Below the pieces are notes generated by a model. The model saw nothing but the letters and a program-made list of their open reading frames with translations, ran no database searches and was not told where the DNA came from. DNA of 64,000 nucleotides from Escherichia coli. GTDB lineage: Bacteria; Pseudomonadota; Gammaproteobacteria; Enterobacterales; Enterobacteriaceae. Of this stretch, positions 20,002-63,020 are shown one piece after another; within the stretch, counting starts at the first letter, position 1, and the number at the start of each line of letters is the position of its first letter. The stretch is from assembly GCF_044647545.1 (NCBI RefSeq), contig NZ_CP172818.1; one strand, given 5' to 3'. A program made the position numbers and the translations under genes.

Positions 20002-20038
20002 GACCATACAGGGATAATTCCCCGGTTTTTTACGCCTG

Positions 20039-40610: not shown

Positions 40611-40641
40611 GAAAAATGGCGCCCATCGGCGCCATTTTTTT
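40611..40641. terminator. bidirectional intrinsic terminator between crr and pdxK
   Basis: aaaaa-ggcgcc-catc-ggcgcc-ttttttt. Confidence 0.65.
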
Positions 40642-41491
40642 ATGCTTCAGCCAGAGGCGGCAAAATCAATTCATCGCTCTCATGCTGCTGGGTATAGCGC
40701 ATCACTTCCAGTACGCGCAACCCCGCGCGGTGCACCGCATCGGTTAACGCCTCCCCTTTCAGCAAACCACTGATAAGCTGAGCACAAAACAGGTCGCCAG
40801 TCCCTTTCAGGTCAGTTTTAACCCGTGAATGGGAAATGACATTCACGCTGTCGGCACTGACCACCACCACCTGCATCTCCTGATTTTCTTCATTACCGGA
40901 GGCGCTGGTAATCACCACCCATTTTAATGTGTCTGAAAGCAGACTTTTTGCGGCAGCAATGGCACTGTCGAGATCGCGGCAATTTTTACCGGTCAGGATT
41001 TCCAGCTCAAAGATATTGGGGGTAATTCCCTGCGCCAGCGGCAGTAAATATTGTCGATACGCTTCGGGAAGGTCAGGTTTGACATAAATTCCGCTATCAA
41101 TATCGCCGATCACCGGATCGACCATAATCAATAAGTCAGGATGGTCTTTGCGTAGCGCAGTCAGCCACTCGGCAAGGATTTTGATTTGCGATGCCGTTCC
41201 CATATAGCCCGTGGTTACAGCACGAAGTTGGCGCAGCGCATCACGCTCCTGAAGCGCACGCAAATAACCGCTAAACCATTCATCCGGAATCGCACCACCG
41301 TAGAAAGTGTCATAATGCGGCGTATTGCTCAGCAATACCGTCGGCACGGCAAAGACATTCAGGCCGTTCTGTTTGATAGCAGGCACCGCAATGCTGTTGC
41401 CCACGCTGCCGTACACTACCTGCGACTGCACGGCGACGATATCCGCCTGCAGTGCCCTGCTCTTATCGTTAAACAACAACAAACTACTCAT
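40640..41491 (-). CDS. pdxK: pyridoxal/pyridoxine/pyridoxamine kinase
   Basis: 283 aa, ribokinase-superfamily PdxK. Confidence 0.9.
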
Positions 41492-41532
41492 TTAATTTTT
41501 TCTCCTTGCCGATGATCCTCATCGTATTCCAG

Positions 41533-41955
<423 letters not shown>

Positions 41956-41957
41956 TC

Positions 41958-42869
41958 TTAAATCCCCGCCCCCTGGCTAAAATGCTCTTCCCCAAACACC
42001 CCGGTAGAAAGGTAGCGATCGCCACGATCGCAGATGATCGCCACCACCACCGCGCCAGGGTTAGCTTTTGCCACTCGCAGTGCACCAGCAACCGCGCCGC
42101 CGGAGCTAACGCCACAGAATATTCCTTCCCGCACTGCCAGTTCGCGCATGGTGTTTTCCGCTTCTCGCTGATGAATATCCAGCACCTCATCCACCAGCGA
42201 AGCGTTGAAAATCCCCGGCAGATATTCCGCAGGCCAGCGGCGAATGCCGGGAATGCTGCTGCCCTCTTCCGGCTGTAAGCCGACAATGGTCACCGGTTTG
42301 AATTGTTCGCGCATAAAGCGCGACACGCCGGTAATGGTGCCGGTTGTTCCCATGCTGGAGACAAAATGGGTAATGCGCCCGCCGGTTTGCTGCCAGATTT
42401 CCGGCCCGGTGGTGGTGTAATGGGCGTAAGGGTTATCGGGATTATTGAACTGATCGAGCAGCTTTCCTTCACCACGATTAGCCATCTCCAGCGCCAGATC
42501 GCGCGCACCTTCCATGCCCTGCTCTTTGGTGACCAGAATCAGTTCCGCACCGTAGGCACGCATTGCCGCACGGCGTTCCTGGCTCATGTTGTCGGGCATC
42601 AGCAATTTCATGCGATAGCCTTTAAGCGCGGCAATCATCGCCAGCGCAATGCCGGTGTTACCACTGGTGGCTTCGATCAACACATCACCCGGTTTAATCT
42701 CGCCGCGCTTTTCCGCCTCGACAATCATCGAAAGCGCTGCACGGTCTTTTACCGATCCCGCCGGGTTATTACCTTCCAGTTTCAACCAGACTTCACTGCC
42801 GTTATTCGGCCCCATTCGCTGCAACTTCACCAGAGGCGTATTGCCAATTGTTTGTTCTAATGTACTCAC
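41958..42869 (-). CDS. cysM: cysteine synthase B (O-acetylserine sulfhydrylase B)
   Basis: GTG start at 42867-42869 gives 303 aa (M)STLEQTIGNTPLVKLQRMGP...; the ORF-track frame extends 26 codons further upstream. Confidence 0.92.
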   Translation of the reverse strand: MSTLEQTIGNTPLVKLQRMGPNNGSEVWLKLEGNNPAGSVKDRAALSMIVEAEKRGEIKPGDVLIEATSGNTGIALAMIAALKGYRMKLLMPDNMSQERRAAMRAYGAELILVTKEQGMEGARDLALEMANRGEGKLLDQFNNPDNPYAHYTTTGPEIWQQTGGRITHFVSSMGTTGTITGVSRFMREQFKPVTIVGLQPEEGSSIPGIRRWPAEYLPGIFNASLVDEVLDIHQREAENTMRELAVREGIFCGVSSGGAVAGALRVAKANPGAVVVAIICDRGDRYLSTGVFGEEHFSQGAGI

Positions 42870-42892
42870 GATCTCTGTCCATACGTGGTGTT

Positions 42893-42928
42893 GCCTGATG
42901 CGACGCTTGCGCGTCTTATCAGGCCTAC
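42893..42928. repeat. REP element between cysA and cysM
   Basis: gcctgatgcgacgcttgcgcgtcttatcaggcctac, near-identical to the REP copy at 17109-17144. Confidence 0.65.
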
Positions 42929-42945
42929 AGGTTACAAACCTTGCC

Positions 42946-42981
42946 ATTAAAAAGCCCGGATCGCGGGAAGCGCCTCCGGGC
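42946..42981 (-). terminator. putative intrinsic terminator just 3' of cysA, upstream of cysM
   Basis: Minus-strand hairpin gcccgga(gg)cgcttcccgcga-tccgggc (42954-42981) followed by TTTTTAATGG (complement of 42944-42953). Confidence 0.5.
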
Positions 42982-43002
42982 GTTTAACATTCACTCAACC
43001 TA

Positions 43003-44100
43003 TCAGGCGCTTTGTGCGAGAGCAAGTTCCTCATCGCGGGTTTCAATACGCTCGTCGCCGTTATACAGCCGCGCATGTTGCAGGCCGACGAACAGACGAT
43101 CGCCGCGCACTGGCGCATCATCCCCGCGCATCACCACCGTCAAGGGTTCGTCATACCATCCCAGCGGCTGCACCACTAATTGGGTGTAGTGACCTTTCGG
43201 GCTGGCTTCCAGTACCTGTACGGGTAGCGGCGAATCGAGGCTGGTACGGCGGCTGATATCCACTTCCCACGGACGCAGGAAGAGATCCACCGGCCCCTGA
43301 TACGCAGGTGTATAGCCCAGCGGCCAGCGATGTGCGCCAACATGGAACTGCCCGCCGCGAATGGTTCCCTGCAGGCGGTTCACTTCGCCCATAAATTCGA
43401 GTACAAAACGGGTCGCTGGTTCGCGCCATACCTGGTCCGGTGCATCAGCCTGCTCGATATTGCCCTGGCTCATCACCACTACACGATCGGCTACTTCGGT
43501 CGCTTCTTCCTGGTCATGGGTCACAAACACGCTGGTGAATTTCAGCTCTTCATGTAACTGACGCAGCCGGCGACGCAACTCTTTACGCACCTGCGCATCC
43601 AGCGCGCCAAACGGTTCATCAAGCAGCAGAATTTGCGGTTCTACGGCAAGCGCGCGCGCCAGCGCCACACGCTGTTTCTGGCCGCCGGAAAGCTGCGCAG
43701 GATAGCGGTCTGCCAGATGGGCAAGCTGCACCATCTCCAGCAATTTTGTCACTTTCGCTTTGATAGCTGCGGCATTCGGGCGCTCGCGACGCGGCAGCAC
43801 CGTCAGGCCGAAAGCGATATTGTCGAACACCGTCATATGGCGGAACAGCGCGTAATGCTGAAACACGAAACCGACTTTACGATCGCGCGCATGCAGGCGG
43901 CTAACGTCGGTGCCGTGGAAGCGAATATGCCCGCTGGTTTGATGCTCCAGCCCGGCGATAATGCGCAGCAGCGTGGTTTTCCCGGAACCGGACGGCCCCA
44001 GCAATGCGACCATCTGACCAGAAGGAATATCCAGTGAGATATCGTTCAGCACCTGGGTGCGACCAAAAGACTTCTTAATATTGGCAATCTCAATGCTCAT
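43003..44100 (-). CDS. cysA: sulfate/thiosulfate ABC transporter ATP-binding subunit
   Basis: 365 aa; Walker [10 protein letters not shown]; ABC signature LSGGQKQR; Walker B LLLDEP. Confidence 0.95.
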
Positions 44101-49811: not shown

Positions 49812-51236
<1,425 letters not shown>

Positions 51237-60270: not shown

Positions 60271-61575
60271 TCAGAAGAACAGTGACGGATCGCCCGCCCG
60301 TTTGGTCAGGCGACCGTTTGCCATAATGCCCATGCTTTCCAGCCAGCGTTCAAACTCCGGTGACGGGCGCAGATTCAGTAACTGACGCACAGTGGCAGTG
60401 TCGTGGAATGCGGTGGTCTGATAGTTGAGCATGATGTCATCACCCAGCGGCATCCCCATGATGTAGTTGCAGCCTGCGGTGGCGAGCAGGATCATCAGGT
60501 TTTCGTTGAGGTTCTGGTCAGCGTCAGCGTGGTTGGTGTAGCAGCAGTCACAGCCCATAGAGATGCCGCTCAGCTTGCCCATAAAGTGATCTTCTAAGCC
60601 CGCGCGGATAATCTGGCGGTCGTTGTAGAGATACTCCGGCCCAATAAAACCGACCACGGTGTTGACGATAAACGGATCGTAATGACGCGCCAGCCCATAG
60701 TTACGCGCTTCCATCGTCACCTGGTCAGCGCCGAAGTTAGCGCCAGCGGACAGCGCCGAACCTTGTCCGGTTTCGAAGTAGAGGCAGTTTTCCCCGGCGA
60801 TACGGTTAAACTCTGCACCCACTGCGCGCGCTTCGTCGAGCATCGCCAGCTCCACGCCAAACTCTTTCAGCCCTTTTTCGCTGCCGCAAATACTCTGGAA
60901 AATCAGCCCGCCCGGTGCGCCGCGACGAATCGCTTCGATCTGGGTGGTGACGTGCGCCAGTACGCAGCCCTGAGTTGGGATGTTGAATTTGTCGATCACG
61001 CCGTAGATGGTGTCCAGCACGCGGCTTAAGTTTTCCACGTCGTCCGTCACCGGGTTGACGCCGATCACCGCATCGCCCACCCCGAAGGAAAGCCCTTCGT
61101 AGATTTGCGCAGCGATACTTTGCACGTCGTCACGGGTGTCATTTGGCTGCAAACGGGCGCTGAAGGTGCCCGGAATACCAATAGTTGTATTGGCCTTTTT
61201 GATTACCGGCATTTTCTTCGCGCCGTAGATCAGGTCCGCGTTAGAACTGATCTTCGCCACCGCCGCGACCACTTCCGAGGTCAACCCTTTGCGAGTAAAG
61301 GCAATGTCGTCAACGCTGGTTTCGTCGCTCAGGACATACTCACGCAGTTCGCTGATGCTCCAGTTTTTAATCTGGTTGTAGGCCGTTTCGTTAACATCGT
61401 CCTGAATCAGCCGCGTCACGCAGTCATCTTCATAGGCAATCACCGGATTATTGCGGATGTCCGCTACGGTCATTTCCGACAACACCTGCTTTGCCGCCAC
61501 GCGCTCCTGTGAGCTTGCCGCAGCAACGCCCGCCAGCACATCCCCCGAACGCAGTTCGTTGGCTTTAGCCAGCAC
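60271..61575 (-). CDS. eutB: ethanolamine ammonia-lyase large subunit; start taken as the GTG at 61573-61575 (434 aa), N-terminal extent uncertain
   Basis: 434-aa frame with AAGGA 10 nt upstream of the GTG; the frame stays open upstream into the eutA 3' end with no ATG/GTG/TTG. Confidence 0.88.
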   Translation of the reverse strand: MLAKANELRSGDVLAGVAAASSQERVAAKQVLSEMTVADIRNNPVIAYEDDCVTRLIQDDVNETAYNQIKNWSISELREYVLSDETSVDDIAFTRKGLTSEVVAAVAKISSNADLIYGAKKMPVIKKANTTIGIPGTFSARLQPNDTRDDVQSIAAQIYEGLSFGVGDAVIGVNPVTDDVENLSRVLDTIYGVIDKFNIPTQGCVLAHVTTQIEAIRRGAPGGLIFQSICGSEKGLKEFGVELAMLDEARAVGAEFNRIAGENCLYFETGQGSALSAGANFGADQVTMEARNYGLARHYDPFIVNTVVGFIGPEYLYNDRQIIRAGLEDHFMGKLSGISMGCDCCYTNHADADQNLNENLMILLATAGCNYIMGMPLGDDIMLNYQTTAFHDTATVRQLLNLRPSPEFERWLESMGIMANGRLTKRAGDPSLFF

Positions 61576-61616
61576 CTCTTTTACATCCTTAAACTGATAT
61601 ACATTGCCGAAAGCCC

Positions 61617-63020
61617 TCAGGAAGGAAATGCGAGTGATTTCACCGTCACCGGCACAACCGATCCGCCAAAAAGAGGCGTACCAATGTCGATATAGTCCCC
61701 CGCGCGGACAATCACTTCGTCAATGACTGCCAACGGGAGTTGTTGTAGCTGTGGGCGCAACAACATGCCCAGAGCTTTACCAAAGTCCTGCCCGGCCACC
61801 ACCAGCAGGGGATGCGGATTCGGAAAACGCGCGACGAAATCGACCAACGCGTTGATGACCGTCAGTACCGCGGCGTAACGCACAGGCAGCGAGGCGGGAA
61901 GCGCCAGCACGTACGCATCAGTTTTGGGATCAAGATCCAGTTGAATCAGCGCCTGTTGCCAGGCACTCACCAGATCCTTTTCATCAATTGGGATCGCCAC
62001 CGGCAAGTTGCGCAGCGGCAGTTGTACGCCCTCCAGCCAGATTGTGCTGCCAGAGAGCGAAAGGGTATGTGCACCCGCGCCAATCACCGTGGCGCGCACG
62101 GTTTGCGCCGGAAACTGCACGTTCATCTCACGCAGGCGCGGATGGTCATGCAGCGCCGTTGCCAGAAGCGGGCCAATATCGGCAAAACAGAACGGGTCGG
62201 CGGGCTGGTGGCGATAACATTCGCCCACGCCGCCAGAAAGCGTAATGATTTCGGGCGTAACACCTGCGGGCAGCAAACCGGTTTGCATTAATGCCTGCGC
62301 GAGCGGCGAAAGCGTTCCGTCAATCACTTCGACAATCAGCTCTGCCATCCGCCGGGTAACCTGCACCAGCTGCGCGCCGGTCAGCGAACGGGCGTCGGTG
62401 CCTGCGCCGAAGCACTCATCCACAATCATCTGCCCCGGTTTATGAGCGTAAACCACGCGCCCCTGGCTGTCGGTTTCCAGCAGGCGACCGCCGACATTGA
62501 GGCAGGCGGTGCCGCTGATTTTTCCGGCATCGAACAGGGCGTAGTTCGCGGTACCACCGCCGATGTCGATATTCAGTACCCGACACAGCCGTTGTTCAGA
62601 AAGGGTTTGCGCCCCGGCACCGTGACCGGCGATCACGGATTCGAGATGCGGTCCAGCGCTGGCGACGACAAAATCGCCCAGCGACCGGGAGAGCGTCATC
62701 ACCGCCGGGCGAGCGTTGCGGTTTTTCGCGCTTTCACCGGTGATGATGATGGCACCAGAATCAACGCTTTCCGGCGCAATGCCCGCAGCCTGATATTGCT
62801 CGAGGATTAAGGTTTTCAGTTCCGCTTCTTTTAAACCACCCTGTTTATCGACAGGGGTAAAGAACACCGGGCTTTGCCAGCTAATTTCGCGTTTGATGAA
62901 TTCGTAGCGCGGCACCTGCGACACCGCCGCACGGTTAACCAGCTCCAGGTGGGAGAAAATCACCTGGGTGGTGGTGGTGCCGATATCGATACCGACGCTC
63001 AGTAGCTGGCGAGTGTTCAC
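61617..63020 (-). CDS. eutA: ethanolamine ammonia-lyase reactivating factor
   Basis: 467 aa, GTG start at 63018-63020 overlapping the eutH stop (GTGA); ASKHA-fold ATPase motifs (IDIGTTTT). Confidence 0.92.
   Translation of the reverse strand: MNTRQLLSVGIDIGTTTTQVIFSHLELVNRAAVSQVPRYEFIKREISWQSPVFFTPVDKQGGLKEAELKTLILEQYQAAGIAPESVDSGAIIITGESAKNRNARPAVMTLSRSLGDFVVASAGPHLESVIAGHGAGAQTLSEQRLCRVLNIDIGGGTANYALFDAGKISGTACLNVGGRLLETDSQGRVVYAHKPGQMIVDECFGAGTDARSLTGAQLVQVTRRMAELIVEVIDGTLSPLAQALMQTGLLPAGVTPEIITLSGGVGECYRHQPADPFCFADIGPLLATALHDHPRLREMNVQFPAQTVRATVIGAGAHTLSLSGSTIWLEGVQLPLRNLPVAIPIDEKDLVSAWQQALIQLDLDPKTDAYVLALPASLPVRYAAVLTVINALVDFVARFPNPHPLLVVAGQDFGKALGMLLRPQLQQLPLAVIDEVIVRAGDYIDIGTPLFGGSVVPVTVKSLAFPS

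Follow-up and report, generated by a model that had tools for sequence, protein, structure and literature searches.

The yfeK/cysM junction of an Escherichia coli strain lacks yfeS, which is the majority and probably the ancestral form

In the 64,000 nucleotides of Escherichia coli DNA that we analyzed (the window, from contig NZ_CP172818.1), the convergent genes yfeK and cysM end just 2 bp apart, and yfeS, which lies between them in K-12, is absent. It is very likely that this yfeS-less allele is the common and ancestral-type form of the junction and that yfeS was never present at this site, rather than having been lost recently. The original prediction, which was made from the sequence of the window, described yfeS as absent, strain-variable, and inserted at what is here an empty site. 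Our comparisons agree with this and refine it: the empty state is the majority and probably the ancestral form, and K-12 is the exception. This is an ordinary presence/absence polymorphism of an accessory gene, and it is already visible in standard annotation.

The features around the junction are as follows, in window coordinates:
40640-41491, minus strand: pdxK (pyridoxal kinase), a 283-amino-acid ORF that is the upstream neighbor of yfeK and divergent from it, with the same position and annotation as in strain FDAARGOS_497 and in K-12
41535-41562, plus strand: sigma-E-type promoter-like motif, GAAACTT-N16-TCAAA, upstream of yfeK and identical in the window and in K-12
41596-41955, plus strand: yfeK, 119 amino acids, GTG start, DUF5329, with the tail AQTDKTL
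41949-41953, no strand: private 9-bp change in the tail of yfeK, from the comparison with FDAARGOS_497
41956-41957, no strand: the 2-bp spacer, TC, at the position of the 955-bp yfeS segment of K-12
41958-42869, minus strand: cysM (cysteine synthase B), 303 amino acids, GTG start at 42869, the last gene of the sulfate/thiosulfate cluster cysPUWAM
42892-42924, plus strand: REP-type repeat in the cysA-cysM spacer, a partial match to Rfam naRNA4 (REP-derived) at 37.9 bits, below the gathering score of 59.5
43003-44100, minus strand: cysA, a 365-amino-acid ORF, upstream of cysM and co-directional with it, annotated as such in relatives

Read directly, positions 41940-41969 of the window are ggataaaacc ctgTAAtcTTAaatccccgc. 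According to the table of open reading frames, the stop codon of yfeK is the TAA at 41953-41955 on the plus strand, and the stop codon of cysM is the reverse complement of the TTA at 41958-41960. Only TC separates them, as the original prediction had it, and no ORF intervenes. (The listed ORF for cysM extends to an upstream ATG, but cysM proper starts at the GTG, as in K-12.) The tight junction is a fact about gene content and not a statistical signal, so the question of chance does not apply to it. The annotations of FDAARGOS_497, XDL, and ERL04-3476 also place the stops 2 bp apart, and RefSeq annotations of the common junction (FDAARGOS_497, Nissle 1917, O157:H7, and O104:H4) also show the genes converging with 2 bp between their stops.

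The identities of yfeK and cysM are secure. YfeK from the window matches PF17263 (DUF5329) over residues 24-115 with E = 1.7e-31 and 108.8 bits, against a cut-off of 27 bits. It is identical to YfeK from K-12 at 113/124 positions and to YfeK from FDAARGOS_497 at 118 of 122 aligned positions. From our reading of the N-terminus, a signal peptide is probable. CysM is identical to the K-12 protein at 298/303 positions and sits at the end of cysPUWAM. The sigma-E-like motif would be expected to act as a promoter for yfeK in the window strain as well.

The MG1655 record agrees with the gene order that the original prediction gave, and with its estimate of about 0.7 kb for the intervening gene. In MG1655, yfeK (b2419) is at 2537342-2537716, yfeS (b2420) is at 2537749-2538483, and cysM (b2421) is at 2538672-2539583 on the minus strand. 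Hence yfeS of K-12 lies between yfeK and cysM, and not elsewhere alongside a 2-bp junction. The stops of yfeK and cysM are 955 bp apart in K-12, which comprises a 32-bp spacer, the 735 bp of yfeS, and 188 bp with REP repeats. (Our copy of K-12 yfeS is locus L001, 4750-5484.) MG1655 and the window have the same flanking genes (ptsHI-crr, pdxK, yfeK, cysM, and cysAWUP) in the same order and orientation. They differ in the additional 955 bp of yfeS and REP sequence between the stops and in YfeK, which has 124 amino acids and ends with TVPAEGN in K-12, versus 119 amino acids ending with TL in the window.

An alignment locates the boundary between the two alleles. Collinearity between K-12 and the yfeS-less strains extends to ..GATAAAACGGTGCCTGCG. 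After this, the yfeS-less strains read CAATAATC-TTAAATCCCC, where the second part is the end of cysM, while K-12 reads GAAGGAAATTAATCCGC...yfeS...GCTATTAATCC-TTAAATCCCC. The K-12 segment rewrites the last codons of yfeK, so that the protein ends with TVPAEGN instead of the TVPAQ of the 122-amino-acid protein in the yfeS-less allele. Nearly all of the variant sites in yfeK are common to K-12 and the yfeS-less strain ERL04-3476 up to ..GGTGCCTGCG, where the two diverge sharply. In ERL04-3476 itself (locus L004, 1697-2064), yfeK is annotated as a frameshifted pseudogene, with a 1-bp deletion in a run of T.

The window differs slightly from the common yfeS-less allele. The common junction reads ..ACGGTGCCTGCGCAATAATCTTAAATCC.., so that the tail of YfeK is VPAQ, and it contains the inverted repeat TTGCGCAG-N16-CTGCGCAA. 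The window reads ..ACCCTGTAATCTTAAATCC.. instead and is 9 bp shorter. Apart from this 9-bp change, FDAARGOS_497 is base-for-base identical to the window around the site. As its flanks and spacer do not differ from those of the common allele, the junction in the window is a private variant of the yfeS-less allele and not another allele class.

The two alleles are both widespread in E. coli. We searched 5,426 complete E. coli genomes with a 251-nt query that spans the common yfeS-less junction, which had to be covered in one piece, and with the 955-bp segment of K-12, which had to be covered by at least 80%. We found the yfeS-less junction in 4,038 genomes (74%) and the yfeS segment in 1,381 (25%), so yfeS is indeed strain-variable, as originally predicted. 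Genomes with yfeS include K-12 derivatives, HS, and DSM 498; those without it include O157:H7, O55:H7, O104:H4, O111, Nissle 1917, and ATCC 11775. The empty junction is nearly invariant in length among the yfeS-less genomes that we sampled. In the O157:H7 strains sampled, the matches to the junction are 1 bp shorter than in other yfeS-less genomes. In a few yfeS-positive strains, yfeS is split by an insertion sequence: ISVsa5 in T2 (locus L005, 6604-8676) and IS1 in LR-03. In strain XDL (locus L003, 1-704), an IS4 transposase adjoins pdxK, where other strains have crr.

Could yfeS be located elsewhere in the genome of the window strain, outside of the window? We consider this very improbable. 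Within the 64 kb, tblastn with K-12 YfeS found no YfeS-like coding sequence (the best E value was 2.3). Empty and filled genomes together account for 5,419/5,426, so hardly any genome could have both arrangements. Also, genomes without the K-12 segment match the 955-bp query only via positions 794-940. These positions match 11-56 places in every genome and are a member of the REP/BIME repeat family.

Alternatively, E. coli may have had yfeS ancestrally, with deletions removing it from the window's lineage and from most other lineages. We examined related loci from other species, using one genome per species with YfeK (22 loci); the loci were mapped with tblastn and the junctions were read. This sample of outgroups is incomplete: the pattern scan that supplied the loci missed E. 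fergusonii, E. marmotae, and Salmonella. Escherichia sp. E1V33 lacks yfeS, and the ends of its yfeK and cysM overlap. The representative of a divergent E. coli species cluster also lacks yfeS and has a tight or short junction. In Pseudocitrobacter faecalis, the junction is GGTGCCTGCGCAATAAACTTAAATCC, with the same 2-bp spacing and almost the same sequence. In Enterobacteriaceae UBA5654, which has no yfeS, the junction is 1 bp; in Superficieibacter sp. and Citrobacter amalonaticus, also without yfeS, the spacer is about 35-40 bp. The only outgroup with yfeS is an uncultured Pseudocitrobacter MAG, whose YfeS is 94% identical to that of K-12 at the amino-acid level and whose left and right junctions are as in K-12. 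That a second genus has the segment with the same junctions would fit with a deletion, but the outgroups without yfeS argue against it.

The composition and distribution of yfeS also look foreign, which argues against its being ancestral. Its GC content is 39.2%, versus 46% for yfeK, 52% for pdxK, and 57-59% for cysM and cysA, and about 52% locally. Beyond E. coli, Shigella, and the one Pseudocitrobacter, the best homologs of YfeS are just 55-65% identical, and these are from Firmicutes and Bacteroidota, with Paenibacillus, Dysgonomonas, Lysinibacillus, and Clostridium among those named. In its atypical composition and patchy distribution, yfeS resembles the insertion of a mobile element or genomic island. 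The 955-bp segment of K-12 contains no integrase, transposase, or other mobility gene; it contains only yfeS and REP sequence, and its sole Pfam match is WGR.

A deletion could have been mediated by short repeats. The original prediction had suggested looking for direct repeats at the flanks of K-12 yfeS, and an 8-bp repeat, ATTAATCC, indeed sits precisely at each end of the K-12 segment; the Pseudocitrobacter MAG has kept it. As a signal, however, it is only weakly beyond chance: a match of this length was reached in 110 of 2,000 shuffles (5.5%) of the two junction regions, which is of marginal significance. Furthermore, a deletion mediated by these repeats would leave ..GCGGAAGGAAATTAATCCTTAAAT. 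We searched the 5,426 E. coli genomes with a synthetic 101-nt junction and found this excision product in none of them (the best match was 93%). The same search found no genome in which the K-12 tail of yfeK is joined directly to cysM. Instead, the empty junction has another yfeK tail, CAATAATC, and this junction is common to P. faecalis as well. On these grounds, we consider an ancestral yfeS that was later deleted to be quite unlikely.

Because all outgroups but one lack yfeS, its GC content is low, its homologs are patchily distributed, and none of the genomes has a K-12-type excision scar, we take yfeS to be a cassette that was gained. The window would then show the unoccupied site, of the ancestral type. 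The original prediction had likewise proposed an insertion. The direction of the event is our inference from sequence comparisons. The cassette may have spread by recombination through its conserved flanks. In the comparison of K-12 and the Pseudocitrobacter MAG, yfeS is 93-99% identical at the DNA level, versus 60-74% for the 5' half of yfeK, which suggests that the yfeS cassette was recently exchanged between genera via the conserved flanks. Pseudocitrobacter has the same polymorphism as E. coli, with E. coli-type junctions: the MAG is filled (locus L013, 4408-5139) and P. faecalis is empty (locus L012). The presence of both alleles in Pseudocitrobacter could also stem from a polymorphism that is old, or from repeated exchanges in one direction or the other.

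Other relatives have different cargo at the same point. E. albertii (locus L017, 4331-6149) has 1.8 kb with two ORFs on the minus strand, of 280 and 175 amino acids, and a GC content of 34.5%. Neither protein has a convincing match in Pfam. None of the 5,426 E. coli genomes cover at least 80% of this cargo, and what does match is one stretch of about 40 nt. C. sedlakii (locus L018, 4364-8185) has two ORFs, of 628 and 654 amino acids, in 3.8 kb; one of them has matches to TPR repeats that are weak and mostly below threshold. Superficieibacter electus (locus L020, 4473-4895) has a 140-amino-acid ORF whose stop codon overlaps that of cysM. The tail of YfeK beyond DKT changes with each cargo. We also considered a role for YfeS or the other cargoes in defense against phage, but neither YfeS nor the cargo proteins of E. 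albertii, C. sedlakii, and S. electus match any of the defense models in PADLOC.

The yfeK/cysM point behaves as a small hotspot for accessory cassettes, which is a familiar phenomenon. As in the integration hotspots of Enterobacteriaceae (regions of genome plasticity), unrelated cargo lies between conserved core genes. Unlike those hotspots, the cargoes lack an integrase, a transposase, or a tRNA target, and the cassettes are very small. A broader proposal is that this is a recurrent slot in Enterobacteriaceae that does not need a mobility gene, in which recombination via conserved flanking sequence swaps unrelated small low-GC cassettes (E. coli and Pseudocitrobacter have yfeS, and E. albertii, C. 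sedlakii, and S. electus have others), and that the adjoining 13 nt of the yfeK tail are perhaps a hotspot for indels. We put this forward only tentatively, as a rather doubtful generalization.

The window has several private mutations. Over 20 kb, it is 100.0% identical to FDAARGOS_497, IMT16316, MS6198, ECONIH1, and others. When all 64 kb are compared, the window and FDAARGOS_497 are set apart only by 2 substitutions and by 49 bases that the window lacks, at five sites:
20011: 11-bp deletion in the hairpin of the nupC/pdeA terminator
41949-41953: 9-bp deletion in the tail of yfeK
46926: 1-bp deletion
52559: 1-bp deletion in a hairpin between pbp4b and yfeX
61612: 27-bp deletion in the eutA-eutB spacer and the start of eutB

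Three of the five deletions fall in hairpins or inverted repeats. At the yfeK site, the common AAAAC-GGTGCCTGCGCAA-TAATC is AAAAC-CCTG-TAATC in the window. This change is in frame and retains the same TAA and the 2-bp spacing, and it converts the end of YfeK from DKTVPAQ to DKTL, which is C-terminal to the DUF5329 domain. Citrobacter and Superficieibacter likewise have a YfeK that ends with DKTL. The change takes away the inverted repeat's right arm, and with it the hairpin. The window's variant of the yfeK tail occurs in 0 of the 5,426 complete E. coli genomes, and the window's YfeK protein, with either V or M at its start, has no record in the gene-position collection.

The 11 bp that are missing at 20011 are kept in 12 of the 12 best matches. 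The 27-bp deletion at 61612 (within the region 61575-61620, minus strand) removes the spacer after the stop codon of eutA as well as the start codon and the first 7 codons of eutB, and this variant is found in 0/5,426 genomes. The longest remaining ORF for eutB, from the GTG at 61575, has 434 amino acids, versus 453, so ethanolamine ammonia-lyase may be impaired. As for the substitutions, the one at 43569 changes a tryptophan in CysA to arginine (in KELRRRLRQ), and this CysA variant has no record in the gene-position collection; the one at 50356 is in murP.

Similar changes in the tail of yfeK are seen in two assemblies of E. coli from chickens, in both of which yfeK reads through into cysM. 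The tail is AAAAC-CCC-TAATC in BS-04 (locus L006, 1530-1545) and AAAAC-AGCCTC-TAATC in BS-01 (locus L007, 1530-1548). Together with the window, this makes three independent variants in the same 13 nt, and all three destroy the same arm of the hairpin. These 13 nt could be a local hotspot for indels or a recurrent sequencing problem. Similarly, the private deletions of the window could be real mutations at hairpins, assembly artifacts, or edits. For users of this sequence, they are a flag about data quality or provenance; one of them removes the start codon of eutB.

The private deletions do not affect the conclusion about yfeS. As the window has five deletions that an otherwise identical genome lacks, one of them at this very site, one might ask if the tight junction is itself an artifact, with yfeS removed from a collapsed or edited region. 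But the private change is 9 bp within the tail of yfeK and cannot explain 955 bp, and 4,038 independent complete genomes, among them strains nearly identical to the window, have the yfeS-less junction as well. We consider the chance of such an artifact to be negligible.

What does the tight junction imply for transcription? We propose that yfeK, which converges on cysM, is regulated by sigma-E and encodes a small DUF5329 protein, probably with a signal peptide. No intrinsic-terminator-like site is predicted on either strand within 41400-43100. In most strains, the putative sigma-E-driven yfeK transcript would run head-on toward the cysPUWAM transcript, and neither a spacer nor a predicted terminator lies between them. 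The yfeK transcript would run antisense into cysM, the cysPUWAM transcript would run antisense into yfeK, and both may end by Rho-dependent or other means. In the minority of E. coli that includes K-12, the genes are separated by the low-GC segment with yfeS and REP sequence, and in K-12 yfeS is co-transcribed with yfeK.

We considered the inverted repeat of the common allele (locus L002, 2030-2062, equivalent to 41929-41953 of the window), at the end of yfeK, as an unusually stable hairpin or a terminator. Its folding energies are -14 and -18 kcal/mol for the two strands, but the z score is only about -1 relative to shuffled sequences, and no terminator-like site is predicted there, so we rejected this idea. 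An Rfam search found only the sub-threshold REP/naRNA4 match in the cysA-cysM spacer. By eye, the common junction (GGTGC..GCGCA.TAA..TTAAAT) also looks similar to a XerCD dif site, but we set this reading aside because several gaps would be needed and the TTAAAT is merely the C-terminal codons and stop codon of cysM.

There is little at stake functionally in the absence of yfeS, which has no known function and whose absence is the norm in E. coli. Because K-12 is the exception at this locus, its gene order should not be taken as the default for the species. In K-12, yfeK and yfeS are described as forming a sigma-E-dependent operon (PMC2685091; for the sigma-E regulon, see also PMC11502571). 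Over-expression of yfeK leads to growth arrest, while over-expression of yfeS has no effect (PMC2685091). The yfeS mutant from the Keio collection is sensitive to boric acid, and this phenotype was complemented only partly (PMC11502571). yfeS is still functionally unannotated (PMC12356324).

Residues 9-71 of K-12 YfeS match the WGR profile (PF05406; E = 6e-18). An AlphaFold model of YfeS, built with 45 homologs, is confident, with a pLDDT of 95.7, and comprises the N-terminal WGR domain and an all-helical C-terminal domain of about 150 residues. We found no solved structure that matches the C-terminal domain. The WGR part matches PDB 2ra8 and the WGR domains of PARP2. YfeS shares the WGR domain with PARP1/2 and with Q64V53 from B. 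fragilis (PDB 2ra8), but unlike the PARP proteins, it lacks the catalytic PARP domain. Several residues are invariant across the 45 homologs, such as H92, Y104, P113, G115, D117, D121, and K192.
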